Below, one piece after another: positions 18,947 to 63,617 of a DNA stretch of 64,000 nt. The notes below the pieces were generated by a model that did not search any database, had not been told where the DNA came from, and worked only from the letters and a program-made list of their open reading frames with translations. Source of the DNA: Vicinamibacterales bacterium (GTDB lineage: Bacteria; Acidobacteriota; Vicinamibacteria; Vicinamibacterales; JAMQPK01); the NCBI GenBank assembly GCA_963782595.1, contig CAWAKJ010000005.1, positions 149,595 through 213,594 on the forward strand. Reading direction: 5' to 3'. The position numbers and the translations under genes are program-made. Each line of letters opens with the position of its first letter. The stretch's first letter is position 1.

Positions 18947-20707
18947 ATGTCTAAACGGTTCTTGGTTCTCGGTTCTGCGGTGCTGGGGTTCTGGTTCCTC
19001 GTTCTGGGTTCGACGGCTCTCACGCAGCGGGGGGCGTCCCCGCCGTCGCCGATGCGAGCGGCAACCTACGAGTTGACCGACGGCCGCACCATCAGCGGCA
19101 CGGCCCTCAATCAAGAGGGTGCCGACGATGTTCAGTTGCGCACGAACGAGGGCAAAATCCTGCTCCTCAGGAAAACGGGTGCGCGCTACCGCGTCGTCAC
19201 CTCGACTGTTGACTGGCCGAGCTACGACGGTGGGCAAAGCGGCAATCGGTACACGACGCTGACGCAGCTGAACAAGTCGAACGTCGAGCGCCTCGCGCCC
19301 AGGTGGATCTACACAATCCCCACATCGGTGCGTCTGCAAACCACGCCGGTGGTGGCCGGCGGCATCATGTACGTGACGAGCGCCAACGAATGCTACGCAC
19401 TCGATGCGGGCAATGGCCGCGAGATCTGGCGGTTTCAGCGTCCGCGCACGAAAGGGCTCGTCGGCAACGCCGCCGGCGGCATCAATCGCGGCGTTGCGGT
19501 GTCGGGCGATCGCCTGTTCATGGTGACCGACCACGCGCACCTCATTGCGCTGAATCGATTCACCGGTGATCTCCTCTGGGATACCGAGATGGCGGACTGG
19601 CGCCTGAACTACAACGCAACGGCGGCGCCGTTGATTGTGGGCGATCTCGTGATCGCCGGGACAGCCGGCGGAGAGCAGGGCGTGCGCGGATTTCTGGCCG
19701 CTTACAATCAAGCAACCGGCAGCGAGGAGTGGCGGTTCTGGACCGTGCCGAAGCCGGGCGAGCCAGGATCGGAAACATGGGTTGGCACGGGCATCGAACA
19801 TCCGGGCGGTGTTACATGGATGACCGGCGTGTACGACCCGGAGCTGCAGCTGGTGTACTGGACAACCGGCAACCCGAGCCCCGACTACAACGGTGACGAT
19901 CGGATTGGCGACAACCTGTACGCGAGCTCCGTCGTTGCGCTAGAAGCCCGCACAGGTCGGCTCAAATGGCACTTCCAGTTCACACCGCACAACGTGTGGG
20001 ACTGGGATGCGCAGCAGCCAACCGTGCTCGTCGACACGACGTGGGAAGGGCGGCCGCGCAAGCTCCTCGTTCAGGCGAGCCGCAATGGATTTTTCTACGT
20101 GATCGATCGGACGGACGGCAAATTCCTGCTCGGAAAGCCGTTCGTGAAAAACCTGACTTGGGCGAGCGAGATCGGCGCCGATGGACGTCCGGTGCTGGTT
20201 CCGGGGCAAGTGCCGACACCGGAAGGAACGCGGATCTGCCCTTCGGCCCATGGCGCCGCAAATTGGTACTCCACGTCGTTCAGTCCGCAAACCGGGCTCT
20301 ATTACGTGCAGACTCTCGAGAACTGCAACGTCTTCGTCAAGAGCGTCAGCGAGTGGGTTGCCGGAAAGTCCTACTGGGGCGGCTCCACGCGTCAGGCACA
20401 AGATGCGCCCAACCAGAAGATTCTTCGCGCCATCGACGTGAAGACCGGCAAAGTGGCGTGGGAACTGCCACAGGTCGGCCCCGGGGCTGCGCGCGGCGGC
20501 ACGCTCGTGACTGCGAGCGGACTGCTTTTCTTCTGTGACGATCAGGATCGATTCGTGGCCGCCGACGCGTCAACGGGCAAGCTGCTGTGGCAGTTCGGCA
20601 CCAACAGCGTCTGGCGCGCCTCTCCGATGACCTACGAGTTCGATGGGCAGCAGCATGTCGCTATTGCATCCGGGTCGAACATCATCGCATTTGGGCTGGT
20701 GAAATGA
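18947..20707 (+). CDS. PQQ-dependent dehydrogenase family protein, atypical (no vicinal Cys, about 100-aa N-terminal extension)
   Basis: ATG directly follows the receptor stop. Propeller repeats and the TPHNVWDWDAQQ block (D352-W-D354). LVGNAAGGINRG sits where the paralogues have CC. Confidence 0.85.
   Translation: MSKRFLVLGSAVLGFWFLVLGSTALTQRGASPPSPMRAATYELTDGRTISGTALNQEGADDVQLRTNEGKILLLRKTGARYRVVTSTVDWPSYDGGQSGNRYTTLTQLNKSNVERLAPRWIYTIPTSVRLQTTPVVAGGIMYVTSANECYALDAGNGREIWRFQRPRTKGLVGNAAGGINRGVAVSGDRLFMVTDHAHLIALNRFTGDLLWDTEMADWRLNYNATAAPLIVGDLVIAGTAGGEQGVRGFLAAYNQATGSEEWRFWTVPKPGEPGSETWVGTGIEHPGGVTWMTGVYDPELQLVYWTTGNPSPDYNGDDRIGDNLYASSVVALEARTGRLKWHFQFTPHNVWDWDAQQPTVLVDTTWEGRPRKLLVQASRNGFFYVIDRTDGKFLLGKPFVKNLTWASEIGADGRPVLVPGQVPTPEGTRICPSAHGAANWYSTSFSPQTGLYYVQTLENCNVFVKSVSEWVAGKSYWGGSTRQAQDAPNQKILRAIDVKTGKVAWELPQVGPGAARGGTLVTASGLLFFCDDQDRFVAADASTGKLLWQFGTNSVWRASPMTYEFDGQQHVAIASGSNIIAFGLVK
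18957..19012 (+). repeat. Tandem heptamer array GGTTCTN x8 encoding the signal peptide of the dehydrogenase
   Basis: GGTTCTT GGTTCTC GGTTCTG CGGTGCT GGGGTTCT GGTTCCT CGTTCTG GGTTCGA is translated as RFLVLGSAVLGFWFLVLGS. Confidence 0.75.
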
Positions 20708-21664
20708 TCATGACGAAACTGCCGCTGGCATGTGCCACCATCATCTCGCTCGTTGGCGGAGCGGCCCTCGCTCAGAGAGGCACGCCTGCCGCACCGGCCC
20801 CGCACACGCTACCGCTCGCGCAGCGGATCTCGCACTACGATCCGGCGAAAAACCGGAACGTCGCCGTCGGTGCACGCCGGAGCCGGCCCCATGTTCATCG
20901 GATCGATGTTCGAGAACGAGCACACCGATACGAACCTGTGGTTCCTGCATCGCGGAAATATTCCGCCCAAAGCCGGTATCGGCGCCCACTTTCACAACAA
21001 CTGCGAGGAGATGTTCATCATCCTCGACGGGGAAGCCCAGTTCACGATTGACGGCCGCACCAGCGTCCTGAAGGGGCCCGCTGGCGCACCCGTGAGAATG
21101 GGCCACTCGCACGCGATCTACAACCACACGGATAGAACGGTGGAGTGGATGAACATCAACGTGACGGCCATCAAGGGATGGTACGACGCGTTCGATCTCG
21201 GCGACTCGCGTGCCAATGCGCCGCTCGATCCAGTACCGCCGTTCATGACGCTGCGGCTCGACCGCACGCTGCTGCGGCCGGTCAACGCCCTGCACGGCGG
21301 TAAGGGCGAGGTGCAGGTACGGCGCGCGTTGGATGCGCAGGTGTTTCTCGGGCCGTGGGGATATGTCGATCACCTGCTGATTCCGGCCGGGTCGTCCACC
21401 GGACCGAGCACCGATGCGGAAATCGGCGGGTTCTATTACGTGCTGGCCGGCGAGGGTACCGTCAAGGTTGGCTCGGAGACGGCTTCGATCAAGGCGCATG
21501 ACGGCGTGCCCTTGAATTTCAACCAGGCCATCTCATTTGAAGCGACGGGCGCCGTGCCCCTCGAACTGATGGCGATCGGCGTGGTCAAGGATGCCGCCAG
21601 GCGTTTCCAGATTGTCGGACGCAACCCCTACCAGCGGGCGCGCGGCGCTGCGCCCGCCCGATAG
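20704..21664 (+). pseudogene. Bicupin paralogue with a +1 frameshift near 20859-20862
   Basis: Signal peptide through [15 protein letters not shown] is in frame 1; [10 protein letters not shown] onward is in frame 2. Alignment to 14461-14490 shows one extra nt (AACG vs CTC). Length is 961 nt. The ATG overlaps the dehydrogenase stop (ATGA). Confidence 0.6.
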
Positions 21665-21685
21665 AAAGGGTGGGCTTTCCGTCAG

Positions 21686-21740
21686 AGCAGATGGCAGATG
21701 GCAGACGGTACTCTCTGCGATCATCCATCTGCCCTCTGCC
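21686..21740. repeat. GGCAGAT heptamer array plus inverted partner (hairpin between convergent genes)
   Basis: AGCAGATGGCAGATGGCAGACGG (21686-21708) faces CCATCTGCCCTCTGCC (21725-21740). The right arm overlaps the last codons of the MFS gene. Confidence 0.75.
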
Positions 21741-23112
21741 TTGACACGCCCATAGAGCCAACAGCCACCGGCTGTGGCTCCTGACCCTTCGCTGGCATTT
21801 CTCCCGCCGGGCGCGTAATCCGCAGCGAGAGCACCAGAGCGCTCCCGATCAGCCCGCACGTCACGAGGTACATGAGACCGGCCGTGTAGCCGCCCGTGAG
21901 ATCGGCGAGATAGCCGATCAAGTAGGGTCCTGCGAAGCCGCCGAGATTTCCCGTCGCGTTGATGAGCGCGATGCTGGCGGCTGCGGCGGGCCCACTGAGA
22001 AAAATAGTCGGGAGTGTCCAGAAGGGCGACGGAAACGAGTACAACGCCATGGTGGCGGCCGAGAACGCGGTGATGGCGAGCACGAGGTGATTGCCGGAGA
22101 CGATGCTCAACGACAGGGCAACGCCGACCGCGAACAACGGGATCGCGGCATGCCACCTTCGCTCGCGCGTCTTATCAGAGTGCCACGCCGTGATGAGCAT
22201 CATCGGGATAGCGGCAAGCCAGGGAATGCCCGAAATCAGAATCACCTGCGTGGTGCTGAGCCCCGAAATGCGCCGCACGATCGTCGGTAACCACGAGCTC
22301 AGGCCGACGCTATTAGTGATGTAGCAGAAGCACGCGAGGGCCAGGATGATCACCTGAGGATGCCGCAGCGCCTCGAGCGTGCTCAGCTTTTTCGCCGATT
22401 TCTTTCTCTCCTTTTCGCGCTCGAGCTCGCCGGTGATCCACTGGCGCTCGGCTTCGGGCAGCCAGCGCGCGTCGCTCGGCCGATCGGTCAGGTAGAAAAA
22501 CGCGACCACTCCGAAGACGACCGTTGGAAGACCTTCGAGGATGAGCAGCCATCGCCAGCCGTTCCATCCGAGCCAGTCGATGCGGATCAAGGCGGCGGCG
22601 ATCGCGGCCCCCACCATGTTCGACGTGGGAATCGCCATCATGAACATGGCGACGGCTTTGGCTCGATCCTCATATCGAAACCAGTGCGTCAGATAAACGA
22701 GGACGCCGGGGAAGAAGCCGGCCTGGGCGATACCCAGGAAAAAGCGGACCCAGTAGAACTCGCCGGCGGTGTCGACGAGGCCGCACAGCGCAGCAAGTGC
22801 GCCCCACACAATCAGGCTGAGCGTGATGAAATTTCTTGCGCTCCACAATTCGGTCAAGAGCGTCGAAGGAATCTGCAGGAGAAAATAGCCGATGAAGAAA
22901 ATTCCTGCGCCGAACCCGAAGACGGTGTTCGAGAACCCGAGGTCCTCCCTCATCTGCAGGGCGGCATAGCCGACATTGACCCGGTTCATGTAGTTGAACA
23001 CGTACAAAACGAAGAGGAACGGCATGAGTCGCCAGATGATGCGCCGGCGCGCCCGTTCGCCGATATCCCTCGACTCTGCTCGAGACAGCTCGCTGTCGAT
23101 GGCTGTGTTCAT
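21721..23112 (-). CDS. MFS transporter (anion:cation symporter / sugar-acid type)
   Basis: 12-TM pattern. N-terminal RRIIWRLMPFLFVLYVFNYMNRVNVGYA resembles hexuronate/galactonate-type permeases. Confidence 0.85.
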   Translation of the reverse strand: MNTAIDSELSRAESRDIGERARRRIIWRLMPFLFVLYVFNYMNRVNVGYAALQMREDLGFSNTVFGFGAGIFFIGYFLLQIPSTLLTELWSARNFITLSLIVWGALAALCGLVDTAGEFYWVRFFLGIAQAGFFPGVLVYLTHWFRYEDRAKAVAMFMMAIPTSNMVGAAIAAALIRIDWLGWNGWRWLLILEGLPTVVFGVVAFFYLTDRPSDARWLPEAERQWITGELEREKERKKSAKKLSTLEALRHPQVIILALACFCYITNSVGLSSWLPTIVRRISGLSTTQVILISGIPWLAAIPMMLITAWHSDKTRERRWHAAIPLFAVGVALSLSIVSGNHLVLAITAFSAATMALYSFPSPFWTLPTIFLSGPAAAASIALINATGNLGGFAGPYLIGYLADLTGGYTAGLMYLVTCGLIGSALVLSLRITRPAGEMPAKGQEPQPVAVGSMGVSRQRADG

Positions 23113-23135: not shown

Positions 23136-23200
23136 GTCCGGCTGAAGCCGGACACTGACGTACTACCGGACACTACGTACTGCGGGACACTGACGTACTG
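23136..23200. repeat. Hairpin GTCCGGCTGAAGCCGGAC followed by three 15-18-nt direct repeats (GGACACTGACGTACT-like)
   Basis: Hairpin at 23136-23153. Units CGGACACTGACGTACTAC, CGGACACTACGTACTG and CGGGACACTGACGTACTG follow, up to 23200. Confidence 0.7.
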
Positions 23201-29647: not shown

Positions 29648-32289
29648 AGTGGGTCTCGCAGGCGCTTGCCGTTGCCGCGGCGCTCGTCGTGGTGAGTCCC
29701 GCGTCAGCGCAGCAGCCACGCGAGACGCGCATGCTCATCACGGTGATCGATCAGACGAACGCGATCATTCCTGACGCGACGGTCACGGTGACGGGGACGG
29801 AGCCGGCCACGCAGAAACTCGAGCCGGCGCCCGTCAAGACAGCGCCGAACGGCCAGGCGGCCATCGGCGGCCTGACTCCGGGGCGCTATACGGCGCGTGC
29901 GGAGTTCCAGGGGTTCTATCCGGGTGTGTTGAAAGAGGTTCGGCTCCGGCCGGGCGACAACCGGCACATCATCGTGCTGCTCGTCGAAAATTTCCAGGAG
30001 ACCGTGGAGGTCAAGCAGGACGCCCAAGCGGGCGCCGCCGATCGCCGCAGCGATGCCTTCGGCTCGGTGCTCACACGAGAGCAGATGGATGCGTTGTCTG
30101 ACGACCCGGATGAGATGCAGCGGCAGTTGATGGATATGGCCGGCCCCGGCGCGGTGATGCGGATCGACAGCTTCGAGGGAGGACGCCTGCCGCCGAAGTC
30201 ACAGATCAAGTCGATTCGCGTGACGCGCGACCAGTTCGCCGCCGAGAACCACAGCGCCGACTCATTTTTCGTCGAGGTCATTACGCAGCCCGGCATCGGG
30301 CCGATTCGAACCGGCTTCAACTACGGTCTGCGCAACAGCGCGATGAGCGCGCGCAACGCGTTTCACACGACCAAAGGCGAGGAACAGGACCAGTACTACG
30401 GTTTGAACATCGGCGGCGGCCTCATCCAGAACAAGGCGTCGTTCTTCCTCCGGGTGTTCGGCAACTCGGCGTACGACACGCCGAACTCGAGCATCGCGCG
30501 CTCGACAGGTACGCGCATCGAAACGCTCAAGCAGCGGGTGCCCCGCGAGAACATGTTCGTCAACGGCAACTTCGACTGGGCCGTGACGCGCGACCAGACG
30601 CTCAGGTTCAGCTACAACCGCAACGCGTTCGTGAACAAGAACCAGGGTATCGGTGGATACGACGAGCCAGAGCGCGCGTTCCTGTTGAAGAACTACACGA
30701 ACACATTCCGCGCCCAGGAAGTGGGGCCGCTGGGCCGCCGCTTCTTCATCAATACACGGTTGAATGTGGGGTGGAGCGATTCGGAGCGCACGTCCAGCGT
30801 AGAGGCGCCGACCGTGCGCATCATCGACGCCCAGACCTTCGGCGGTGCCCAGAAGGCCGGCGGGCGGCATTCGCGCGACGTCAATTTCGCGAGCGACCTC
30901 GACTACGTCCGCGGCATGCATTCACTGCGGGTAGGAGCGGCCATCGACGTCAACTGGTTCAGGTCGGACGAATCCGACAACTACCTGGGAACCTACACGT
31001 TCGAGAACGTCGCCGCGTTTGACGCGGAACGCCCGCGTAGCTACACCCGCCGCGTTGGTGTGCCCCAGGTCGATTATTCCAACGTACAGACCGCGCTGTA
31101 TGTGCAGGACGACATTCGAATCAGGAAGAGTCTGTCGGTGACGCCAGGCGTGCGCCTCGAAAAGCAGGCGCACATGCACGGGCTGACCGTCGGGCCGCGG
31201 CTCGGTGCCACGTGGGCGCCGTTCGCGAACGGCAAGACGACACTGCGGGCGAGCTGGGGGATTTTCTACGACTGGCTGCAGACCAACACCTACGAGCAGA
31301 CGATTCGCATCGACGGCTCCCAGCAGCGCGAGATCAATATCGCGAACCCGACCTACCCGGTGCCACCGATCGACCTGGATGGCACGGCACCCGCAGATCG
31401 CTACCTGCTCGGTTCAAATCTCGAGCACCCGAAAAACTCCCGCGTCAGTGGGGGCGTCGACTACGTGTTCTCTCCGCGGTATCGGGTGAACGCGACATAT
31501 CGCTATGTGCGCGGCGCGGGATTGTTCCGCGGCCTCAACCTGAACGCGCCGGAGAACGGGATTCGGCCGAACTCGAAATTCGGCAACGTCGTCCAGGTCG
31601 TTAGCGACGGCGCGCTGCGACAGCACGTGTGGAACTTTGGCGGTCAGACCAATTTCCCACAGGAATTGGGGAGGGCGGCGCGCAAGTGGGACTTCAGACG
31701 CTTCAATTTCTTCGGCAACTACTTTCTGGCGTCGAGCGAAAACAACACCGACGGCCCGTTCAGCGTGCCGGCCACGGGCGATCTCGACCTGGAGTGGGGG
31801 AATGCGGCCCAACACGCCAGGCATCGCTTCAACGGCGGGTTCCTTACCCAGGCATACAGAGATCTGTCGGTGCAGGTGAACGTCAACGGCAATCTCGGCA
31901 CAGCCTACGGTATTCAGACGGGTTTCGACAGTAACGGAGACCTGATCTTCAACGACAGACCTGCCAGCGTGTCCAGGAACACGCTGGTGACCGATCCGAA
32001 CTGGATGCTGAACATGTTCGTCGGCTATGCGTTTACCTTCGGTCCCTCGATTCAGCTGCCGCCGGGGATTCAGTTCGGGCCCGGGGCAGGCGGGACGCTC
32101 ACCGTGACGACGGTGACGCGCCCCGATCAGGGCCGTTATCGGATGGCGGTGAACGTGTTCATCAACAACCTGACCAACCGCGCGAATCTGACGGGTTATA
32201 GCGGCGTGGAAACGTCGGAGTTTTACCGACGGCCGACCAGAGCCGACGGTGCGCGACGGATTCAGGTGAGCACGAACCTGACGTTCTAG
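29644..32289 (+). CDS. TonB-dependent-receptor-like outer-membrane barrel with carboxypeptidase-regulatory-like domain
   Basis: Signal peptide, ITVIDQTNAIIPDATVTV...GRYTA module, long barrel, terminal Phe (STNLTF). Confidence 0.75.
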   Translation: MKWVSQALAVAAALVVVSPASAQQPRETRMLITVIDQTNAIIPDATVTVTGTEPATQKLEPAPVKTAPNGQAAIGGLTPGRYTARAEFQGFYPGVLKEVRLRPGDNRHIIVLLVENFQETVEVKQDAQAGAADRRSDAFGSVLTREQMDALSDDPDEMQRQLMDMAGPGAVMRIDSFEGGRLPPKSQIKSIRVTRDQFAAENHSADSFFVEVITQPGIGPIRTGFNYGLRNSAMSARNAFHTTKGEEQDQYYGLNIGGGLIQNKASFFLRVFGNSAYDTPNSSIARSTGTRIETLKQRVPRENMFVNGNFDWAVTRDQTLRFSYNRNAFVNKNQGIGGYDEPERAFLLKNYTNTFRAQEVGPLGRRFFINTRLNVGWSDSERTSSVEAPTVRIIDAQTFGGAQKAGGRHSRDVNFASDLDYVRGMHSLRVGAAIDVNWFRSDESDNYLGTYTFENVAAFDAERPRSYTRRVGVPQVDYSNVQTALYVQDDIRIRKSLSVTPGVRLEKQAHMHGLTVGPRLGATWAPFANGKTTLRASWGIFYDWLQTNTYEQTIRIDGSQQREINIANPTYPVPPIDLDGTAPADRYLLGSNLEHPKNSRVSGGVDYVFSPRYRVNATYRYVRGAGLFRGLNLNAPENGIRPNSKFGNVVQVVSDGALRQHVWNFGGQTNFPQELGRAARKWDFRRFNFFGNYFLASSENNTDGPFSVPATGDLDLEWGNAAQHARHRFNGGFLTQAYRDLSVQVNVNGNLGTAYGIQTGFDSNGDLIFNDRPASVSRNTLVTDPNWMLNMFVGYAFTFGPSIQLPPGIQFGPGAGGTLTVTTVTRPDQGRYRMAVNVFINNLTNRANLTGYSGVETSEFYRRPTRADGARRIQVSTNLTF

Positions 32290-32380
32290 GACACAGAGGC
32301 CACAGAGACAAACGGAGGCCGCAGAGGAATTAGATCAAAATTCTCTGTGCTCTCCGTTCTACTCTGTGCTCTCTGTGTCC
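32289..32380. repeat. 92-bp composite palindrome of the CACAGAG/AACGGAGG family
   Basis: Left arm GGACACAGAGGCCACAGAGACAAACGGAGGCCGCAGAGGAATT. The right arm is its imperfect reverse complement (...CTCTGTGCTCTCTGTGTCC). Lies between convergent genes. Confidence 0.8.
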
Positions 32381-36402: not shown

Positions 36403-36424
36403 GGATTGGGGATTGGGGATTGGG
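36400..36424 (+). repeat. G-rich heptamer array TAGGGATTGGGGATTGGGGATTGGG
   Basis: Starts with the lysA TAG stop. Four G3-4 tracts separated by ATT. Confidence 0.85.
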
Positions 36425-37057: not shown

Positions 37058-37088
37058 AGGGATTAGCGACTAGGGACTAGGGATTGGG
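37058..37088 (+). repeat. G-rich heptamer array AGGGATTAGCGACTAGGGACTAGGGATTGGG
   Basis: Lies between tmk and comF. Contains the comF stop and its last codons on the opposite strand. Confidence 0.8.
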
Positions 37089-38298: not shown

Positions 38299-38320
38299 AG
38301 GGATTGTGATTAAGGATTGG
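38299..38320 (+). repeat. Degenerate G-rich heptamer array AGGGATTGTGATTAAGGATTGG
   Basis: Upstream of the four-helix-bundle gene. Confidence 0.6.
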
Positions 38321-38396
38321 TGAGTAGTGCAGAAACTGCCGCGCTGCGGGGTGCGACGGATCGCAGAAAACGAAAAACGCGCGCCTCGGCTGAACG

Positions 38397-38424
38397 AATC
38401 CCTTATCCCCAAACCCTAGTCCCT
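38397..38424 (-). repeat. G-rich heptamer array in inverted orientation (AATCCCTTATCCCCAAACCCTAGTCCCT on + strand)
   Basis: The only copy that is C-rich on the + strand. Contains the rsfS stop codon. Confidence 0.75.
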
Positions 38425-42525: not shown

Positions 42526-42572
42526 GGTTGGGGATTGGGGATTAGGGATTGGGGACTGGGGGTTGGGGATTA
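42526..42572 (+). repeat. Longest G-rich heptamer array (six G4-5 tracts)
   Basis: GGTTGGGGATTGGGGATTAGGGATTGGGGACTGGGGGTTGGGGATTA lies in the divergent spacer between the TPR gene and dprA. Confidence 0.85.
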
Positions 42573-46095: not shown

Positions 46096-46103
46096 AGATC
46101 GGC

Positions 46104-46168
46104 GATCGTCCATCGTCCATCGTCTGGAGATCCACGTCATTGCCATCTGCCATTTGCCCTCTGCCCTG
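46104..46168. repeat. CATCGTC x3 array followed by a CATCTGC-type array (inverted GGCAGAT family)
   Basis: GATCGTCCATCGTCCATCGTC (46104-46124) and CATTGCCATCTGCCATTTGCCCTCTGCCCTG (46138-46168), directly upstream of trmFO. Confidence 0.8.
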
Positions 46169-46170
46169 AC

Positions 46171-47607
46171 ATGATTCATGTAATTGGCGGCGGTCTAGCC
46201 GGTTGTGAGGCTGCGTGGCAAGCGGCATCGCGCGGTGTTCCCGTCACCATCCACGAAATGCGGCCCGTGCGTCCGACCGAGGTGCACAAGACCGATCGGC
46301 TCGCCGAGCTCGTCTGCAGCAATTCGTTCCGCGGCGACAAGCTGGACAACGCCGTCGGCCTTCTGAAAGAGGAAATGCGCCGGCTCGACTCGCTCGTGAT
46401 GCGCGCCGCCGAAACCGCGCGCGTGCCGGCGGGCGCCGCGCTGGCCGTCGATCGCGACCTGTTCGCCCGATCCGTCACGCGGGCGATCCACGAGCATCCG
46501 CTCATCACGCTCGCGCGCGAAGAGGTCACCGCGATTCCAGTCGCTTCGCGCGAGTCGCCAGTGATCATCGCGACCGGGCCACTGACGTCGCCCGCCCTCT
46601 CCGCCGCTGTGGTGCACCTGGTCGGCAACGACCATCTGTATTTCTACGATGCGATTAGTCCGATCGTGCTCGCAGAGACCATCGACATGAAGGTGGTCTT
46701 CCGCGCCTCGCGTTGGAATCGGAACGTTCGTCCCAAGCCCGGGATTGGTTCTGAGCCGCTGAACGCGCCCAAGACGTGCGGAATAGACGATGGTGAAGGG
46801 GACTATCTGAACTGCCCGATGACGGCGGACGAATATCGGGCGTTTTACGCGGCCCTCTCGACGGCCGAATCGGCGACCGTCCATGATTTCGACAAAGAGA
46901 AGTTCTTCGAGGGCTGCCTGCCGATCGAAGTGATGGCGCATCGCGGCGAAGACACGCTGCGATTCGGGCCCATGAAGCCGGTGGGGTTGACCGATCCGAG
47001 AACGGGCCGCCAGCCATACGCCGCCGTTCAGCTGCGTCAGGACAACCTGGCCGGCGATCACTACAGCCTGGTGGGATTTCAGACGCAGCTGAAGTGGGGA
47101 GAGCAGGCGCGCGTGCTGCGCATGATTCCGGGTCTCGAGCAGGCCGAGTTCGTGCGGTTCGGCATGGTCCATCGCAACACGTACATCAACGGGCCGACGG
47201 TGCTGCACGAGACGTGGCAGACGCGTGCGAACCCGTCGTTGTTCTTCGCGGGCCAGATCTCCGGTGTTGAGGGCTATGTGGAATCTGCGGCATCCGGCCT
47301 GATCGCCGGAAGAAACGCGGCGGCACTGGCGCGGGGCGAGGCACTTTGCGTACCACCACGTACGACCGCCATCGGCGCGCTCGCCTTCTACGTGTCGCAC
47401 GCCAATCCGCACGGCTACCAGCCGACGAACATCACCTTCGGCATTATGGAGCCGCCCCCGGCCGGCATCCGCGACAAGCAAAAGAGGAAGCTGTCGATTT
47501 CCGAGCGTGCCCTCGCGGACCTGGATGCTTGGAAGGAGGCGGAAAGCGGACGGGATAGGGCAGATGGCAGATGGCAGAAGGCAAAGGACGGAGCGCAGAC
47601 GGCATGA
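46171..47607 (+). CDS. trmFO: Methylenetetrahydrofolate--tRNA-(uracil-5-)-methyltransferase
   Basis: VIGGGLAGCEAAWQ FAD motif and LVCSNSFR. The C-terminal ~16 aa (ADGRWQKAKDGAQTA) are encoded by the repeat. Confidence 0.95.
   Translation: MIHVIGGGLAGCEAAWQAASRGVPVTIHEMRPVRPTEVHKTDRLAELVCSNSFRGDKLDNAVGLLKEEMRRLDSLVMRAAETARVPAGAALAVDRDLFARSVTRAIHEHPLITLAREEVTAIPVASRESPVIIATGPLTSPALSAAVVHLVGNDHLYFYDAISPIVLAETIDMKVVFRASRWNRNVRPKPGIGSEPLNAPKTCGIDDGEGDYLNCPMTADEYRAFYAALSTAESATVHDFDKEKFFEGCLPIEVMAHRGEDTLRFGPMKPVGLTDPRTGRQPYAAVQLRQDNLAGDHYSLVGFQTQLKWGEQARVLRMIPGLEQAEFVRFGMVHRNTYINGPTVLHETWQTRANPSLFFAGQISGVEGYVESAASGLIAGRNAAALARGEALCVPPRTTAIGALAFYVSHANPHGYQPTNITFGIMEPPPAGIRDKQKRKLSISERALADLDAWKEAESGRDRADGRWQKAKDGAQTA
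47558..47587 (+). repeat. GGCAGAT heptamer array at the trmFO 3' end
   Basis: GGGCAGATGGCAGATGGCAGAAGGCAAAGG, inverted relative to 46138-46168. Confidence 0.85.
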
Positions 47608-48536
47608 GGGAGACGCTCAGAGACTTCCTTCAACATCTCCGGCGGCGCGACGTTTCACCGCATACGCTCGCGGCGTATGAAAACGACGTGTCCACGTTTC
47701 TCCGGCACACGGCGCACCTCAGGCAACGGCAGGTCGACGCGCTGACCCCATCGGACGTCGACGCGTTTGCGATCCGCGCGTTTCTCGGCGAGCTGCACAA
47801 GCAGCGCCTGTCCGCGTCCTCGTCTGCGCGAAAGCTCTCGGCGATTCATACCTTCGTGAAGTTTCTGCGGCGCGAGGATTTGATCGAAAACGATCCCGCC
47901 GCGCTCGTCGCGGCGCCGAAGAAGCCCGAGACGATCCCGGCTCATCTGACAGTGGACGAAATGAGCCGACTGCTCGAGATGCCGGACTGTTCGAGTCCCC
48001 TGGGTCGCCGCGATCGCGCCATCCTGGAGCTGTTCTACGCGTCGGGTCTTCGCCTCAGCGAGCTCGTCGGTCTTGACATGGAGGATGTGAACCTGTCGGG
48101 ACGGATGGTGCGCGTGATGGGGAAGGGTCGGAGAGAGCGGCTCGTGCCCTTCAACAGCGCGACAGCTGACGCTCTTCGCGCGTGCATGAAGGATCGAAGC
48201 CTGTCAGGGCAGATGGCAGATGGCAGAGGGCAGACCAAGCGAGGACGTGGTGGCGTGCAGGCGCCGCTGTTTCTCAACTACCGCGGCGGGCGACTGTCCG
48301 CGCGCAGCGTCGATCGTCTGGTGCGTCGCTACGTCGCCGAGTGCGGCGCGAAGTTCGGCATCAGCCCGCACGCATTGCGGCATTCATTCGCCACACACCT
48401 GCTTGCCAATGGGGCAGACCTTCGAGCCATTCAGGAGCTGCTCGGGCACGCCCGCCTCAGCACGACCCAGCGCTACACGCACGTCAACGCGAAACAGCTG
48501 ATCGACGTCTACAAGAAGTCGCACCCCCGCGCGTAG
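47604..48536 (+). CDS. xerC: Tyrosine recombinase XerC/XerD family
   Basis: HALRHSFATHLL and ARLSTTQRYTHV (catalytic Tyr). ATG overlaps the trmFO stop (ATGA). Whether it is xerC or xerD cannot be resolved. Confidence 0.85.
   Translation: MRETLRDFLQHLRRRDVSPHTLAAYENDVSTFLRHTAHLRQRQVDALTPSDVDAFAIRAFLGELHKQRLSASSSARKLSAIHTFVKFLRREDLIENDPAALVAAPKKPETIPAHLTVDEMSRLLEMPDCSSPLGRRDRAILELFYASGLRLSELVGLDMEDVNLSGRMVRVMGKGRRERLVPFNSATADALRACMKDRSLSGQMADGRGQTKRGRGGVQAPLFLNYRGGRLSARSVDRLVRRYVAECGAKFGISPHALRHSFATHLLANGADLRAIQELLGHARLSTTQRYTHVNAKQLIDVYKKSHPRA
48207..48234 (+). repeat. GGCAGAT heptamer array inside xerC
   Basis: GGGCAGATGGCAGATGGCAGAGGGCAGA is read in frame as GQMADGRGQ. Confidence 0.85.
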
Positions 48537-49565: not shown

Positions 49566-49674
49566 GGGCGACCCGCCTTCGCGCTGCGCGCTACGGCGCG
49601 GCAGGCGGAATGCGCGGTCGCCCGACCAGACTGTCAACTGACTGTCGACTTTCGACTTGCGACTGTCGACTTGC
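49566..49674. repeat. Long GC hairpin followed by a GACTGTC/GACTTGC heptamer array
   Basis: GGGCGACC (49566-49573) pairs with GGTCGCCC (49616-49623). Six heptamers occupy 49629-49674. Lies between convergent genes. Confidence 0.75.
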
Positions 49675-49683
49675 GCCTTAAGA

Positions 49684-51090
49684 CTAGCTGGCTGCCGCCA
49701 CCATCGGCCGTCGTCCCCGTGGAAACTCGATGCCCAGCGTCTTGATCTTGTAGTTCATCACCCTCGGGCTGATGCCAAGCAGCTCGGCCGCGTCCTTCTG
49801 CACCCAGTTGGACATCTTCAGCGCTTCCATCAGCGCGCTCCGCTCGATCTCTTCGAGCGGTACGCCTGACGGCGGAATCTTCACGAGCGCCGACGCCTCG
49901 CGCGGGCCGGTCGAGCCCGCGGTCGCCGCTTCGCCGAGGCGCAGATCGTCGGAGGCGATGAACTGCCCCTCGGTCATCAGAATCGCCCGTTCGACCGAGT
50001 TTTCGAGCTCGCGGATGTTGCCCGGCCAGTTGTAGCGCAGCAGCATCTTCTGCGCTTCCTGATCGATGCCGTCGATCTTCTTCTTGAGCTCGCCGGCGAA
50101 CTTCTTCACGAAGAACATCGCAAGCGGCGTGATGTCTTCCTTGCGCTCGCGCAGCGGCGGCATTTCGACAGAGACGACGTTGAGACGGTAGTACAGGTCT
50201 TCGCGGAATGCCCCGGTCGCCACCATCGAGGCCAGGTCGCGGTTGGTGGCCGCGATGAGCCGCACATCCACCTTCTGCGTACGCGTCCCGCCCAGGCGTT
50301 CGAACTCGTGCTCCTGCAGCACGCGGAGAATCTTCGCCTGAATCGCCGCGCTCATGTCGCCGACTTCGTCGAGGAACAGGCTGCCGCCGTCGGCCTGCTC
50401 GAAACGGCCGATGCGCTGGCGGTCGGCGCCCGTAAACGCCCCCTTCTCGTGCCCGAACAGTTCCGACTCGAGCAGGGTCTCGGGCAGCGCCGCGCAGTTC
50501 ACCTTCACGAAGTTCCGTCCTGCCCGGTGCGAATTGTGGTGAATCGCGCCGGCGATGAGCTCCTTGCCCGTGCCCGTTTCGCCCCGGATGAGCACGGTCG
50601 TGTTGCTCTTGGCCACCTTGCGCACCACGCTGAGCACGCGTTTCAGCGGCTCGCTCTGGCCGACGATGCGGTCGAAGTCGTAGATGTCGTTCTGGGTATG
50701 CCGGAGGTAGTCGAGCTCGTGCCGCATACGGCGCATCTCGAGCGCCTTCTCGATCTTCACTTCCATTTCTTCGATCTCGAAGGGCTTCTGCACGTAGTCG
50801 AACGCGCCGCTCTTCATTGCTTCGACGGCCGTGTGCACCGATCCGAATGCGGTCATGAGGATGACCGCCGTCGACGGATGCAGCGTCTTGGTCGTACGAA
50901 GGACATCGAGGCCGTCGCTGCCACCCATCTTCAGGTCGCTCAGCACGACGTCGAAGTGGCCGTCGTGCAGGCGCTCGATCGCCTGGTTCCCGTTCGGCGC
51001 CTCTTCCACCTCGTGATTGGCGGCCGTGAGCGCCCGTGCAAGCCCACGCCGGAGGGCGTCGTGATCGTCAGCGATGAGAATGCGACCCAT
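49684..51090 (-). CDS. Sigma-54-dependent response regulator (NtrC family)
   Basis: REC domain (ILIADDHD...DLKMGG), AAA+ domain (GETGTGKE, ESELFGHEKGAFTGA), C-terminal Fis HTH. ATG at 51090 follows a GGAG-containing RBS. Confidence 0.9.
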   Translation of the reverse strand: MGRILIADDHDALRRGLARALTAANHEVEEAPNGNQAIERLHDGHFDVVLSDLKMGGSDGLDVLRTTKTLHPSTAVILMTAFGSVHTAVEAMKSGAFDYVQKPFEIEEMEVKIEKALEMRRMRHELDYLRHTQNDIYDFDRIVGQSEPLKRVLSVVRKVAKSNTTVLIRGETGTGKELIAGAIHHNSHRAGRNFVKVNCAALPETLLESELFGHEKGAFTGADRQRIGRFEQADGGSLFLDEVGDMSAAIQAKILRVLQEHEFERLGGTRTQKVDVRLIAATNRDLASMVATGAFREDLYYRLNVVSVEMPPLRERKEDITPLAMFFVKKFAGELKKKIDGIDQEAQKMLLRYNWPGNIRELENSVERAILMTEGQFIASDDLRLGEAATAGSTGPREASALVKIPPSGVPLEEIERSALMEALKMSNWVQKDAAELLGISPRVMNYKIKTLGIEFPRGRRPMVAAAS

Positions 51091-52490: not shown

Positions 52491-52550
52491 GGAATCTTAA
52501 ATCTGGAATCGGAAATCTGAAATCTGGAATCCGGGTCCAGACGCCAGATT
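52491..52550. repeat. AT-rich GGAATCT/AAATCTG heptamer array (second locus)
   Basis: GGAATCTTAAATCTGGAATCGGAAATCTGAAATCTGGAATCC plus an inverted CCAGATT that overlaps the ABC-F stop. Confidence 0.8.
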
Positions 52551-54528
52551 ATTTCTGCAGCTCTTCCCACTGGTGCATCAGGTCGCCGAGCTCCCACATG
52601 AGCGCCTGATGGCGCTCGCCAAGGAGCCGGACCTGGTCGCGGTTGTCGTAAAAGCCGGGGGCCGACATCGCCGCCTCGATCTCCTTCATCGCCTGCTCGC
52701 GATCGGCAATCCGCACCTCGAGATCGGAAATCCTCGACTCCAGTTTCTTCGCCGCCTGATCGCGCTTGCGTTGCACGGCGGCTTGCTGTTTGCGCGCCTC
52801 ATGATCGGCAGCTGGAGTTTTTTTGACCGGACCCGCCTTCGCGCCAGGCGCTCCGGCGGGTGAACCCGACGAACCCGACGAACTCGACGAACTTGACGAA
52901 CCCAACGAACCCGTCGAACCAACCCTGTGTTCCTTACTCCACAAGAACTCCGTGTAGCTCCCAGGAAACACCACAGCCTCGCCATGTCCGATTTCAATGA
53001 TCCTGGTGGCCAGCTTCTCGACGAAGTACCGATCGTGCGAGACGAAGACCAGCGTGCCGCCGTAGTCTTCGAGCGCATCCAGCAGGATGTCTTTCGAATC
53101 GAGGTCGAGATGGTTCGTTGGCTCGTCGAGCAGCAATGTGTTGGAGGGCCGGAGCAGCATGCGTGCAACGGCGAGCCGCGTGCGTTCGCCGCCAGAGAGC
53201 ACGCCGGCTTTCTTGTAGATGTCGTCTCCCGAGAACAGGAAGCCGCCGAGAATATTGCGGATGGCCGGCACCATGTCCATCGGCGATCCGGACGAGAGCG
53301 TCTCGTAGACGGTCAGTTTCGGGTCGAGCTTGACCGCTTCATCCTGCGCGAAGTACTGCATCACGACCTGATGGCCTTCGCGCCGGGTGCCCGTGTCGGG
53401 CGCTTCCACGCCCGACAGCATGCGCATCATCGTGCTCTTGCCCGCGCCGTTCGGACCGACGAGCGCGATGCGATCGCCCCGTTCGATCAGCAGATTGAGC
53501 TTCGAGAAAATCACGTGGCTGCCGTACGCCTTGTGGGCGTGGTGGAGCTCGAGCACCGATCGGCCGCTTTTCGCACAGACAGGAAAGGTGAAATGAATGC
53601 GCTTCCGCTCGGGCGGCGCTTCGATCGGCACCACCTTTTCGAGCATCTTGATTCGGCTCTGCACCTGCGACGCTTTGGTGGCCTGGTAGCGGAACCGATC
53701 GATGAACATCTTCACGCGCGCGACCTCTTCGTCCTGCTCGCGCTTCGCCTTGCGCAGCTGTTCCATCCGCGCATCACGCTCGGCGATGTAATGCGTGTAG
53801 GTGCCCGGATAGTCGGTCAGCTGGCGAAGGGTCAGATCGGTGATGCGGGTCACCACGGCGTCCAGGAAGAAGCGGTCGTGCGAGACCAGAATCACCGCGT
53901 ACGGGTACTCGACGAGGTACGTCTCGAGCCAGTTCCGCGCTTCGAGGTCCAGATGGTTCGTCGGTTCGTCGAGCAGCAGCAGCGTCGGGCGGCCGAGCAG
54001 CAGCTTGGCGAGGGCAAGCCGCATCTGCCATCCGCCAGACAGCGAATCGGTGGGCTGCCCGAACGTCTCGTCAGTGAAGCCGAGCCCGCGAAGCACCGTG
54101 GCCACCTTGAGATCGATGCCGTAACCCTCTTCGATGCGGAAGCGATCCTGCAGCGCGCTGTAGCGCTCGAGCATCGCATCGTGCTCTTCCTGCGGCAGCG
54201 ATGCATCGCCGAGACGATTTTCGATGACGTGCATCTCGTGCTTCACGTTGAGCAGATCGGCGAAAGCCGAGCACGCTTCGTCCAGAATCGAGCGGCCCGT
54301 GTGCGACAGTCCGTCCTGCGGCAAATACCCGACGGTCAACGAACCCGGCTTGATGATGCTGCCCGTATCAGGTTCGTCGAACCCCGCGAGCATTTTCAGC
54401 AGCGTGGTCTTGCCGGCGCCATTCGGTCCGCACAAGCCGACGCGCTCGCCCGCGCTGATCTGCCAGGTGACGTCTTCGAGTAGTACGCGCTCGCCGAATG
54501 ACTTGGTGATGCTTGAGAGCTGTAACAC
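52549..54528 (-). CDS. ABC-F family ATPase
   Basis: Two Walker A motifs (GPNGAGKTT, GPNGAGKST), two signatures (LSGGWQMR, LSGGERTR), no TM segments, C-terminal coiled coil. GTG start. Confidence 0.9.
   Translation of the reverse strand: MLQLSSITKSFGERVLLEDVTWQISAGERVGLCGPNGAGKTTLLKMLAGFDEPDTGSIIKPGSLTVGYLPQDGLSHTGRSILDEACSAFADLLNVKHEMHVIENRLGDASLPQEEHDAMLERYSALQDRFRIEEGYGIDLKVATVLRGLGFTDETFGQPTDSLSGGWQMRLALAKLLLGRPTLLLLDEPTNHLDLEARNWLETYLVEYPYAVILVSHDRFFLDAVVTRITDLTLRQLTDYPGTYTHYIAERDARMEQLRKAKREQDEEVARVKMFIDRFRYQATKASQVQSRIKMLEKVVPIEAPPERKRIHFTFPVCAKSGRSVLELHHAHKAYGSHVIFSKLNLLIERGDRIALVGPNGAGKSTMMRMLSGVEAPDTGTRREGHQVVMQYFAQDEAVKLDPKLTVYETLSSGSPMDMVPAIRNILGGFLFSGDDIYKKAGVLSGGERTRLAVARMLLRPSNTLLLDEPTNHLDLDSKDILLDALEDYGGTLVFVSHDRYFVEKLATRIIEIGHGEAVVFPGSYTEFLWSKEHRVGSTGSLGSSSSSSSSGSSGSPAGAPGAKAGPVKKTPAADHEARKQQAAVQRKRDQAAKKLESRISDLEVRIADREQAMKEIEAAMSAPGFYDNRDQVRLLGERHQALMWELGDLMHQWEELQK
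52862..52920 (-). repeat. Tandem 9-nt repeat (GGGTTCGTC x about 6.5) inside ABC-F
   Basis: Encodes GSTGSLGSSSSSSSSGSSGS in the linker before the C-terminal coiled coil. Confidence 0.85.
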
Positions 54529-58844: not shown

Positions 58845-59497
58845 ACGTAGTTGTCAGGGCGCTCGCCGCGGGTGCCATGTTGACGGTGGCCGGTTCGGTC
58901 GCCGCTCAGAATACTCAGCGGCCTGCGCAGACGACGGCCGCGCAGATGCAGGCCCGCCAGCAGATTGCCGCCTTCGAAGCGGCGCTCGAGAACGCCGTCC
59001 GGTATGGGGCTCAGATGCTCGATCAGCGCCTGCAGGCGTCGAGCGCGGCGAACATGGTGATGCTCGCCGGGATGCCGCGTGCCCGCGGTTTCCGTCTCGA
59101 CGATTACGGCGTCATGTTCGACGTGGAGTTCCCGTCGATGCGCAAGAGCATGGTGTGGAGCCTGCAGGAACTGGAGCGTGCGAATCTCGGGGCCGCCGTG
59201 CGCACGGCCGAATCGACCAACGCCGTCCAGCCGCGCGAAATCTATCAGAACGAAATCACCAGCGCGCTCCTCAGCGTCGTCCTCAACTACACCGGGGCGA
59301 TCGGGATTGCGCCAGCCGAATGGCTGACGGTCGCGGCGCGCGAGAGCGTCGTCGACAGACGATTCGTCAACGGGGGCGTGAGCGAGGCGCCGATGACGGT
59401 GATCATCCGGATGAAGGGCGGCGACCTTCAGGCTCTGCGCGAAGGCAAATTGTCGCGCGAAGAGGCGCGGCAGCGCGTGGACGTGAAACACTACTGA
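58841..59497 (+). CDS. Secreted hypothetical protein
   Basis: GTG overlaps the anti-sigma stop (GTGA). Signal peptide MNVVVRALAAGAMLTVAGSVAAQ. Confidence 0.55.
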   Translation: MNVVVRALAAGAMLTVAGSVAAQNTQRPAQTTAAQMQARQQIAAFEAALENAVRYGAQMLDQRLQASSAANMVMLAGMPRARGFRLDDYGVMFDVEFPSMRKSMVWSLQELERANLGAAVRTAESTNAVQPREIYQNEITSALLSVVLNYTGAIGIAPAEWLTVAARESVVDRRFVNGGVSEAPMTVIIRMKGGDLQALREGKLSREEARQRVDVKHY

Positions 59498-59575
59498 CTT
59501 CAGACTTCGGGCTTCTGGCTCCGGCTTGCCCGCCGTAGCGCTTCGCGAAGGCGGGAGCCTGAAGCCCGGAGCCGG
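59496..59575. repeat. GACTTCN/GGCTTCN heptamer array with inverted partner around a GC core
   Basis: GACTTCA GACTTCG GGCTTCT GGCTCCG GCTTGCC, then the core CGCCGTAGCGCTTCGCGAAGGCG, then the inverted GCCTGAAGCCCGGAGCC. Confidence 0.7.
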
Positions 59576-62068: not shown

Positions 62069-63486
62069 TGGCTATTTCGCTTCCTGAGACATTCGCTCCG
62101 GCACTCGACACGCTGACGCCGCGCCAGATCGTCGTGGAGCTCGACAAGTACGTCATCGGTCAGAAGGAGGCCAAGCGCGCCGTCGCCATTGCGCTGCGCA
62201 ACCGCATGCGTCGCCAGAAGCTCGCGCCCGAGATGGCCGAAGACGTGGTGCCGAAGAACATCCTCATGATCGGCCCGACCGGAGTGGGCAAAACCGAGAT
62301 CGCGCGGCGTCTCGCGCGGCTGGCGCAATCGCCGTTCATCAAGGTCGAGGCGTCGAAGTTCACCGAGGTCGGGTATGTCGGCCGCGACGTGGAGTCGATG
62401 GTGCGCGATCTCGTCGAGCTGGCCGTCGACATGGTGCGCGAAGAGCGCCTCGAGGAAGTCCATGGCAAGGCAGAGCAGAATGCCGAAGAGCGGCTGCTGG
62501 ATCTGCTGCTGCCGCCGCCTCGCGCGGCGCTCGAGCCGGATGATGCCGCGGCCGGCCGCACGAGCGAGTACATGCCCAACGTGACGCCGCAGGATTCGTG
62601 GCATCAGACACGCGAGAAGTTCCGCGAGCAGCTGCGCGACGGCCGCCTCGATCAGCGCTCGGTAGAAATCGACGTGCGCGAGCGCGCGTTCCCGTCGTTC
62701 GAAGTGATTACCGGATCGTCCATCGAAGAGATCGACATCAACATCAAGGACATGCTGCCGGGCCTGATTCAAGGGCGGACGCGCAAGCGCCGCTTGAAGG
62801 TTCCAGAGGCGTTCGACTTTCTGGTACAGGAAGAGGAAGGCAAGCTGGTCGACATGGACAGCGTCGCGCGCGTGGCCGTCGAGCGTGTCGAACAAAGCGG
62901 CATCATTTTCGTGGACGAGATCGACAAGATCGCGGGGCGCGAAGGCGGAGGACAGGGTGGTCCCGACGTGAGCCGCGAGGGCGTGCAGCGCGACATCCTG
63001 CCCATCATCGAGGGCACCACGGTCAACTCGAAGTACGGGATGGTGCGCACCGATCACATCCTCTTCATCGCGGCCGGCGCGTTCCACGTATCGAAGCCGT
63101 CGGATCTGATCCCGGAGCTGCAGGGACGCTTTCCGATTCGCGTCGAGCTCGAGCCGCTCGGCAAGGACGATTTCGTGCGCATTCTCACCGAGCCGAAAAA
63201 CGCGCTCGTGAAGCAGTACATCGCCCTGATGGAAACCGAAGGCATTACGCTGCGTTTCCTCGACGACGCCATCGATCGCATCGCCGATTTCGCGACGAGG
63301 GTGAACGAGCGCACCGAGAATATCGGCGCCCGCCGTCTGCACACCGTGATGGAGCGCCTGCTCGACGAAATTTCTTTCGAAGGTCCCGATCTGCGGGACA
63401 AGGTCATTACGATTGACGCCGCCTACGTTGACCTGATGCTCGCGGCCATCGTCAAGAACGAAGATCTTTCACGTTACATCCTGTGA
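62065..63486 (+). CDS. hslU: ATP-dependent protease ATPase subunit HslU
   Basis: [17 protein letters not shown], Walker [16 protein letters not shown], Walker [10 protein letters not shown]. Overlaps hslV by 4 nt. Confidence 0.95.
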
Positions 63487-63504
63487 CACGAACGGGCGGA
63501 CGTA

Positions 63505-63617
63505 GGACACAGAGGCCACAGAGGTCGGCTTCGCACCCCCGAGAGCACAGAGAACTCTTTTTTCTTTTGACATGAAATACTCCGTGCCCTCCGTTTTTCT
63601 CTGTGTCCTCTGTGTCC
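63505..63617. repeat. Third copy of the CACAGAG/AACGGAGG composite palindrome
   Basis: Left arm GGACACAGAGGCCACAGAGG (63505-63524). Right arm ...CCCTCCGTTTTTCTCTGTGTCCTCTGTGTCC ends at 63617. Confidence 0.8.

Follow-up and report, generated by a model that had tools for sequence, protein, structure and literature searches.

Tandem heptanucleotide arrays of diverse unit sequence in a Vicinamibacterales genome: placement, turnover and possible origins

Introduction

The window analysed here, a stretch of 64,000 nucleotides from a Vicinamibacterales bacterium (Acidobacteriota; GenBank assembly GCA_963782595.1, contig CAWAKJ010000005.1, positions 149,595 to 213,594 of the forward strand), carries a real and highly non-random population of tandem arrays with a repeat unit of 7 nt. 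Such arrays occur lineage-wide and are specific to period 7. They change in copy number by whole units, turn over rapidly and are dispensable at any given site, are concentrated in DNA under low constraint, and share unit families locally. We lean, with some reserve, towards reading them as hypermutable heptanucleotide simple-sequence repeats (SSRs) resembling the short tandemly repeated repetitive (STRR) sequences of cyanobacteria, which would arise by slippage and local template switching, be tolerated where constraint is weak and in some cases be co-opted as stem-loops.

Period-7 arrays in the window

Periodicity was scored by counting stretches in which base i equals base i+7, and runs scoring at least 10 were retained. 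The window holds 18 such runs, whereas 20 dinucleotide-preserving shuffles averaged 0.45 and never exceeded 3. Periods 4-6, 8-13 and 15 yielded 0-3 runs each; period 14 gave 7, mostly period-7 arrays re-read at the doubled period. Tandem Repeats Finder (TRF) returned 19 period-7 rows between 18957 and 52531, together with period-14 and period-21 readings of the same arrays. Both programs recover the arrays where an original prediction, made by reading the sequence, had placed them. That prediction counted more than 20 places and at least nine units. The first figure is reached only when the two arms of hairpins are counted separately, and eight of the nine units listed proved to be heptamers, distributed over about 18 loci. 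The ninth, CACAGAG (32288-32377 and 63504-63618), has a TRF period of 9, not 7. A weak pair at 38300-38425 had been overlooked, and a range printed as 40564-36 should read 40564-40636. The arrays, in window coordinates, are as follows.

18957-19011, + strand: weak GGTTCTN array of about 7.7 copies (74% matches, 8% indels), codons 4-22, in the signal peptide of a PQQ-dehydrogenase open reading frame (ORF) (TRF, Pfam)
21687-21742, unstranded: hairpin made of a GGCAGAT array, a spacer and the inverted ATCTGCC array, where the cupin (+) and MFS (-) genes converge
32288-32377, unstranded: period-9 NNCACAGAG array hairpin (TRF; z -9.3), filling the gap in which an outer-membrane barrel gene and a radical-SAM gene converge
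36402-36424, + strand: (GGGGATT)x3.3 with four G-tracts, lying between the lysA stop and the tmk start
37058-37083, + strand: AGGGAYT array overlapping the final comF (-) codons at the convergent junction with tmk
37622-37653, + strand: AGGGATT-type array, in frame, encoding QPQSPLPNPQSL in the comF zinc-ribbon loop
37831-37860, + strand: AGGGATT/GGGGACT array, in frame, encoding LIPSPQSLIP at the comF N-terminus
38300-38425, unstranded: weak pair of a G-rich array (38398-38425, read on -) and a C-rich array (38300-38330) flanking the conserved GCAGTTTCTGCAC core in the rsfS-IVP/comF spacer
39000-39029, + strand: AGGGATK array, in frame, encoding LIPHPQSLIP in a variable loop of NadD
40565-40636, unstranded: GAATCTG array and inverted array forming a hairpin (z -7.8), between rpmA and obg in a co-directional (-) operon
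40914-40954, - strand: AT-rich array, ACUUUUU in the mRNA, filling the rplU-rpmA spacer
42528-42571, + strand: (TTGGGGA)x6.3 in the divergent geneX/dprA region, upstream of conserved TGCTATAGT
46097-46167, + strand: in the topA-trmFO spacer, an array of CCATCGT units that passes into one of CCATCTG units (inverse GGCAGAT)
47559-47583, + strand: (GGCAGAT)x3.6 in the C-terminal tail of TrmFO, which is not conserved; the array includes the predicted xerC ATG
48208-48234, + strand: (GGCAGAT)x3.9, in frame, encoding GQMADGRGQ in a variable loop of XerC
49640-49685, + strand: GACTGTC/GACTTGC array that separates a terminator hairpin at 49566-49625 from the stop codon of a gene (-) for a sigma-54 activator
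52493-52531, + strand: (AATCTGA)x5.6 in the gap that separates an ABC-F gene (-) from a histidine-kinase gene (-)
59490-59575, unstranded: hairpin (z -3.2) of a GGCTTCN array and its inverted array on either side of a GC-rich core, between two co-directional ORFs without Pfam match
63504-63618, unstranded: second period-9 NNCACAGAG hairpin, downstream of an AAA+ (HslU-like) gene

The largest family, GGGGATT/AGGGATT/GGGGACT, is found at 36402, 37058, 37622, 37831, 39000 and 42528. GGCAGAT units occur at 21687 (with inverted arm), 46141 (inverted), 47559 and 48208, and GAATCTG units at 40565, 40607 (inverted) and 52493. The remaining families are confined to single sites: AAAGTAA at 40914, GACTGTC at 49640, CATCGTC at 46097, GGCTTCN at 59490 (with inverted arm) and a weak GGTTCTN at 18957. 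Each of the six GGGGAYT arrays contains at least four G-tracts of at least three G, and four such tracts are the minimum for an intramolecular quadruplex. Since strong enrichment is limited to period 7 whatever the unit, the data fit a single shared generating process, as had been proposed. With tandem units above chance, several dispersed and mostly non-coding units and whole-unit polymorphism, the arrays belong to the heptanucleotide SSRs in the broad, STRR-like sense.

Spread among relatives and phages

The host had been judged Acidobacteria-like from sequence, and this agrees with the best match of its Obg protein, 84% identical to that of a Vicinamibacterales metagenome-assembled genome (MAG), followed by other Acidobacteriota. 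The locus of this MAG (L001) is syntenic with 27-51 kb of the window at about 80% nucleotide identity. In addition, 80 soil-metagenome contigs (L081-L160, 329 kb) at 55-96% identity were collected via the lineage-specific protein encoded at 41358-42410. They contain 74 period-7 runs against 0 in one shuffle, with 1-4 runs at periods 5, 6, 8 and 10, so that the scan of relatives suggested with the original prediction returned the same excess. Genome loci L001-L080 (1.38 Mb) contain 76 period-7 runs against 3 in one shuffle, alongside 59 runs of period 9 and 29 of period 6. Their period-7 runs accumulate in Vicinamibacterales, in Pyrinomonadaceae (10 per 21 kb) and in Terriglobia, as well as in single MAGs of Gemmatimonadaceae and Nitrospirae and in a few other loci, and the unit sequences vary by lineage. 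On a Pyrinomonadaceae chromosome (OZ252004.1; L016, 12200-12322), TAACTGA/TCAGTTA arrays form a hairpin, which extends to Acidobacteriota the range of a unit reported from Beggiatoaceae, Cyanobacteria and Bacteroidetes.

A scan of viral contigs for (GGGGATT)3 led to high-GC contigs that are extremely rich in heptamer arrays. The head module of one high-GC phage (L177; IMG/VR IMGVR_UViG_3300037843_000663, 1-14211), with genes for terminase (TerL), portal, S49 protease and major capsid protein, carries 26 arrays in 14 kb. Mostly AGGAGTT/AACTCCT or GGATTTT/AAAATCC hairpins, they stand in nearly all intergenic gaps; array density is similar in L184, L163, L174, L176, L181 and L182. A search of a plasmid collection with window positions 36-43 kb gave only distant obg matches.

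The same viral collection includes 2-3 kb contigs of 21-28% GC (L170, L178 and L175). CCCCAAT/GGGGATT arrays stand head to head at both ends of L170 and L178; in L175 an inverted pair lies internally instead. L170 and L178 resemble nanochromosomes of the ciliate type, bearing a 7-nt telomere, that have been placed among viral contigs. They are unrelated to the bacterial arrays.

Turnover of arrays and units

Between strain pairs of 98.7-100% identity (L083/L084, L085/L086 and L091/L092), differences of 7, 7, 7 and 21 nt were found within arrays, indicating the behaviour of simple-sequence repeats. Over longer distances, comparison of orthologous intergenic regions, as advised with the original prediction, showed arrays that are variably present, absent or replaced by other unit families. 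The rplU-rpmA gap holds ACTTTTT units in the window and, in relatives, ACTTTCN, AGTTTCT/AGATTCT, GGTAGCT, GCATTCG, palindromic CAGCTNN or CAGTTCT units, or 5-9 nt without an array. Likewise, the rpmA-obg gap of relatives contains hairpins of GAATCTA, GAAAGTA, CCAGCTN, AAAGTGA, GAGTCGG or GCTTTCG units, or 5-27 nt without an array. The 42528-42571 array between geneX and dprA is absent from relatives or replaced by other units; the region upstream of TGCTATAGT has AATCCCY, CTCTCCC, CTCTGCC or palindromic GGGGAGA arrays, or none. In the syntenic locus L001, arrays 42528, 37058 and 32288 are absent, a GAATCTA-type array stands at the 36402 site, AATCCCY units stand at the 46097-46167 site and a REP-like element takes the place of the 49640 array; the arrays 40565, 40914 and 39000 are common to both.

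Unit drift can be seen inside a single array, where CCATCGT grades into CCATCTG (46097-46167), and CTCTCCC and CTCTGCC arrays both adjoin CTCTTCC and the same conserved CTCTTCCCTGCTATAGT. Neighbouring arrays 60-3000 nt apart belong to the same family in 11 of 36 cases across loci, against a baseline of 11% (p=0.001). Within the window there are six adjacent same-family pairs (p=0.015), and the mean distance to the nearest same-family array was not significant (p=0.34). As to a bias with respect to the replication strand, the orientation of G-rich arrays agrees with local GC skew in 23 cases across loci and disagrees in 14 (p=0.19), the window's own skew being too small to use.

Arrays in relation to genes

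On a gene map built from ORFs, third-position GC and Pfam, non-coding DNA makes up 6% of the window and yet receives 66% of array bases, an 11-fold enrichment; arrays occupy 668 of 3853 non-coding bases (17%). Almost all arrays had been placed at gene boundaries. This holds for 17 of 20 array loci, which lie at most 25 nt from a start or stop codon, whereas 37622, 39000 and 48208 are deep inside genes and several arrays fall in coding sequence. Convergent 3' ends harbour the arrays at 21687, 32288, 37058 and 49640, and co-directional intercistronic gaps those at 36402, 40565, 40914, 46097-46167, 52493 and 59490. The array at 42528 stands in a divergent promoter region.

Five arrays are translated in frame, namely those in NadD, the ComF N-terminus, the ComF zinc-ribbon loop, the XerC loop and the signal peptide, and four of the six G-rich (GGGGAYT) arrays lie in coding sequence. 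Alignments with relatives place the in-frame arrays of NadD, ComF and XerC in length-variable loops or termini. The zinc-ribbon array (37622-37653) is longer in L001 and absent in L090 and L095, and translated versions of the N-terminal array (37831-37860) are retained in the Illumina contigs L083, L085, L086, L090 and L095. L001 itself has frameshifts in obg, nadD and comF (10001-13700), several of them at or near heptamer arrays, which are probably long-read indel errors at repeats. Because these frameshifts make L001 unsuited to judging frame preservation, Illumina contigs were used instead, and in them the reading frame at in-frame arrays is retained (LIPNPKSLIP, IPNPQSLIP, ELIPDPQSPVP).

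A GGCAGAT unit followed by G creates an ATG every 7 nt (47564-47573), and the predicted xerC start at 47571 lies within such an array, so that a change in array length could shift or create start codons.

Two conserved motifs adjoin arrays. CCCTGCTATAGTGGAG (window 42446-42480, - strand), which precedes the gene at 41358-42446, is strongly conserved and recurs in orthologs in L081-L129; it resembles an extended -10 promoter (TGnTATAGT) with GGAG after it. TGCTATAGT, before the same gene, is a putative extended -10 element. Heptamer arrays adjoin CCCTGCTATAGTGGAG where the -35 box would normally be. The second motif, GCAGTTTCTGCAC (about 38335-38350, - strand), is short and conserved in the rsfS/comF spacer across distant Acidobacteriota (L090, L095, L086, L006, L009), and in this clade it lies between G-rich and C-rich arrays.

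Hairpin arrays

Five sites had been cited as imperfect hairpins. All fold strongly (-34 to -57 kcal/mol, z -3.2 to -9.3), with 0-1 of 200 shuffles folding as well, although only three are truly heptameric, the other two having period 9. The hairpin at 21687-21742 has -34 kcal/mol and z-scores of -5.6 on one strand and -4.7 on the other. The two arms of the hairpins mirror each other in their variant units, which means that the arms are copies and not independent expansions. Among orthologous rpmA-obg spacers with arrays or repeats, 9 of 10 form long hairpins (z -2.8 to -6.8) from at least five unit families, and GC-rich hairpins take this site in more distant relatives. Palindromic copies sit where relatives carry other stem-loops. 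They probably act as RNA 3'-end or processing/stability hairpins rather than as classical intrinsic terminators.

A terminator role had been implied. Reading of the window sequence and a scan for the terminator consensus found no T-run or U-tract 3' of any hairpin array on the transcribed strand; the scan flagged only 40592-40618, on the non-transcribed strand, and terminator-like sites were not above shuffles. The arrays accordingly fall outside the Rho-independent class, for lack of its U-tract, and a canonical GC-rich, A/T-flanked terminator hairpin lies at 49566-49625, beside the 49640 array. Rfam 15 gave no match at the gathering threshold over the whole window.

Two classes of palindromic element were also set aside. 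Miniature inverted-repeat transposable elements (MITEs) or other mobile hairpins disagree with ortholog comparisons, which revealed ragged boundaries, unit gradients, no target-site duplications and no fixed ends; shared termini occur only in the two period-9 hairpins (32289 and 63504), whose terminal 19 nt are identical although the sites are 31 kb apart. Repetitive extragenic palindromes (REP) and bacterial interspersed mosaic elements (BIME) possess a conserved family of imperfect 20-40 nt palindromes, which is missing here, the arms being tandem units of many families. Palindromic arrays resemble REP/BIME in standing at 3' ends and in intercistronic gaps, where they would give similar RNA stem-loops. 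They differ in having no conserved family sequence, stems made of tandem 7-nt units and unit-wise copy number, and no REP-associated tyrosine transposase (RAYT) was seen.

Possible origins

Growth and shrinkage proceed by whole 7-nt units, as the strain pairs show. The process has the look of slipped-strand mispairing, and something in the cell would strongly favour a 7-nt step. Point mutations within an array would create new unit variants that are then amplified, and units would seed nearby spacers and inverted arms, most simply via template switching. Because the process would be fast and unselective, arrays would accumulate at weakly constrained sites such as intercistronic spacers, 3' ends, promoter-distal DNA and variable protein loops; in the loops only in-frame versions would survive, as P/Q/S-rich linkers. 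Most copies would then be dispensable filler.

Several points weigh against this account. Plain slippage explains neither the sharp preference for 7 nt over 6 or 8 nor the recurrence of identical units (GGGGAYT, TAACTGA) in distant phyla. One within-array indel measures 19 nt, and slippage is read from its footprint in population variants of a few strain pairs. Two observations hint at selection for the arrays themselves: in many relatives the same two ribosomal-operon spacers retain arrays although the units have been replaced, and nearly all intergenic gaps of the phage head module contain a heptamer hairpin. The shared units of distant phyla and the density in a phage keep rival explanations alive.

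One such explanation, to which we give a low but appreciable probability, regards the arrays as selected multivalent platforms for a single-strand-binding protein with a footprint of about 7 nt, be it an OB-fold protein such as ribosomal protein S1, a cold-shock-domain protein or another. Coating would tune translation initiation, coupling or mRNA stability, and the period would be the ruler of a protein rather than of a mutational process. The strict period of 7 whatever the unit sequence would suit such a ruler, as would the distance of 4-18 nt between arrays and start codons in intercistronic spacers, the U-richness of rplU-rpmA arrays in the mRNA sense in several relatives, the operon positions kept despite unit turnover and the high density in a phage structural operon; S1 or cold-shock proteins have been proposed for TAACTGA repeats (MacGregor, 2015; PMC4679880). 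Nevertheless, close relatives have no array at all at the same sites (5-9 nt spacers), the units have no common motif, and both orientations relative to transcription occur. Arrays are also present in promoter-distal DNA and coding loops, and many are sequestered in hairpins and hence not single-stranded.

A broader conjecture, also improbable in our estimation, is that a dedicated 7-nt ruler is at work in several phyla of soil bacteria and in their phages. The ruler might reside in an enzyme of replication or repair, in a template-directed polymerase or in a nucleic-acid-binding protein that forms filaments. As much as one sixth of the intergenic DNA would be written and rewritten by it in the form of heptamer arrays and palindromes; it would converge in unrelated lineages on identical units (GGGGAYT, TAACTGA) and supply interchangeable stem-loops and protein linkers.

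Placement or movement by a dedicated machine, either a MITE-like hairpin element or a telomerase-like template-directed polymerase or reverse transcriptase with lineage-specific templates, appears quite unlikely. Such a machine could account for the recurrence of the same units at many, locally clustered loci, for the shared termini of the two period-9 hairpins, for units that are identical across distant phyla (Nostoc has GGGGAYT, the Pyrinomonadaceae locus L016 has TAACTGA) and for palindromic arrays arising repeatedly at the same sites. Filled and empty sites nevertheless differ without target-site duplications or conserved element ends, arrays grade between unit variants and change copy number in situ by single units, and neither a reverse transcriptase nor a transposase was found beside arrays in the window; the inserted PF05635 gene nearby is present in only 3-4 related array-bearing loci.

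Least probable of all is regulation of transcription or translation by the GGGGAYT family through G-quadruplexes or i-motifs, as proposed in Nostoc and Xanthomonas, with the other families unrelated: all six G-rich arrays have the tracts for it and these units form both structures in vitro with a preference for four units, but no regulatory effect was seen (Rehm et al., 2015; PMC4692102), the family is only one of eight, GAATCTG, AAAGTAA, GACTGTC and GGCAGAT cannot form quadruplexes yet share period and positions, most of the G-rich arrays are in coding sequence, and arrays are absent or replaced in close relatives.

Comparison with known heptamer repeats

The STRR heptanucleotides of heterocystous cyanobacteria (Calothrix PCC 7601, Nostoc/Anabaena) were reportedly described by Mazel et al. 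in 1990 (ref. 39 of PMC4692102), and the first reports of cyanobacterial heptamer repeats are said to be decades old. The window arrays are similar: they consist of a few head-to-tail copies of a 7-nt unit, with several units per genome and many, mostly intergenic, sites. They differ in their host, a high-GC soil acidobacterium, in a mostly different unit repertoire, in the many arrays paired with an inverted copy and in the several in-frame copies in housekeeping genes. The GGGGACT variant within the 37831 and 42528 arrays is, we take it, the rotated reverse complement of the STRR1 unit CCCCAGT. An assignment to STRR in the strict sense is not appropriate, the host being a member of the Vicinamibacterales and this presumed STRR1 equivalent, the only one present, being a minor variant.

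The likeness to cyanobacterial repeats noted in the original prediction is borne out by the GGGGA(C/T)T repeats of Nostoc PCC 7120, described together with GGGAATC repeats of Xanthomonas (Rehm et al., 2015; PMC4692102). These repeats lie near ORF ends, some as inverted pairs, with about four units, no link to particular gene functions and no demonstrated function; in Xanthomonas they occupy the same gene pairs with variable length and sequence (PMC4692102). The main window unit, GGGGATT/GGGGACT, is identical to that of Nostoc PCC 7120, and its arrays likewise have about four G-tracts, lie close to ORF ends, are in some cases inverted pairs and show no tie to particular gene functions. Unlike the single G-rich quadruplex family of that report, it is one of eight in the window, most of which are unable to form quadruplexes, and four of its six copies are in coding sequence.

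Intergenic TAACTGA direct repeats are known from marine Beggiatoaceae, Cyanobacteria and Bacteroidetes, and CspB is noted to bind heptamer repeats with one protein per unit (MacGregor, 2015; PMC4679880). These repeats resemble the window arrays: 2-6 copies stand directly upstream of start codons, their phylogeny is scattered, and other heptamers are mixed in within some genomes. In contrast, Beggiatoaceae have one dominant unit per genome where the window has many, and TAACTGA is absent from the window. According to the papers that cite it, the survey by Mrazek, Guo and Shah (2007) found period 7 to be the most over-represented among long SSRs of 5-11 nt in many prokaryotes, with an intergenic bias, and proposed polymerase slippage as the origin (PMC4679880, PMC4692102). 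Relative to this statistical survey as summarised there, hairpin organisation, local clustering of families and in-frame coding copies are what distinguishes the window. Neither of the two citing papers gives a demonstrated cause for the 7-nt period or a demonstrated function (PMC4692102, PMC4679880).

The original prediction knew of no equivalent in an Acidobacteria-like genome. In the literature searched, which covers the 2007 survey through its citing papers, no description of heptamer repeats in Acidobacteria was found, although heptamers of Xanthomonas, Beggiatoaceae and Bacteroidetes have been published (PMC4692102, PMC4679880). As the phenomenon is already published outside cyanobacteria, only the lineage is new, and the arrays are biologically coherent and not categorically new.

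Other repeats and inserted genes in the window

REP-like GC-rich hairpins (GTCCGGC-N4-GCCGGAC; GTAGTGTCCGGC-TTTA-GCCGGAC) arranged as tandem pairs, together with an 18-nt tandem array, are found at 14157-14212, 15321-15368, 23136-23200 and also 11685-11715. In addition, a GGGCGGGTCTTG...CAAGACCCGCCC hairpin resembles GGCGGGTCTnnAGACCCGCC hairpins in the rpmA-obg spacers of L133-L160. These elements fill the spacers in the initial third of the window, which has no heptamer arrays. Besides the two period-9 hairpins, a period-9 array of GAACCCGAC (x6.6, 52862-52920) encodes an in-frame tripeptide repeat in the ABC-F ATPase gene (52549-54528, - strand), and period-9 runs are elevated in the metagenome relatives too (35 in 329 kb).

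A gene for a PF05635 '23S rRNA intervening-sequence protein' is inserted exactly at the comF start codon (window 37875-38261, - strand; L001 12269-12658; L086 about 4847-5119). It has a GCATGAC(G/A)C motif at both ends and an ATGA stop/start overlap with comF, is absent in L083, L090 and L095 and is degraded in L085; from these features it looks like a small mobile gene cassette. As a general companion of the arrays it was discarded, since an iterated hidden Markov model search of all loci recovered it only in the window, L001 and L086, the L085 remnant being seen only in the comparison of rsfS-comF spacers.

Implications

For genome annotation the arrays call for caution, as they generate start codons, C-terminal tails and low-complexity protein inserts, and coincide with the frameshifts of L001. 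For the biology of the group, this clade offers a tractable system for asking why bacteria make 7-nt repeats: with dense arrays of many families, abundant close metagenome variants and operon spacers that have been refilled repeatedly, slippage rates, local spread and effects on fitness become directly measurable.

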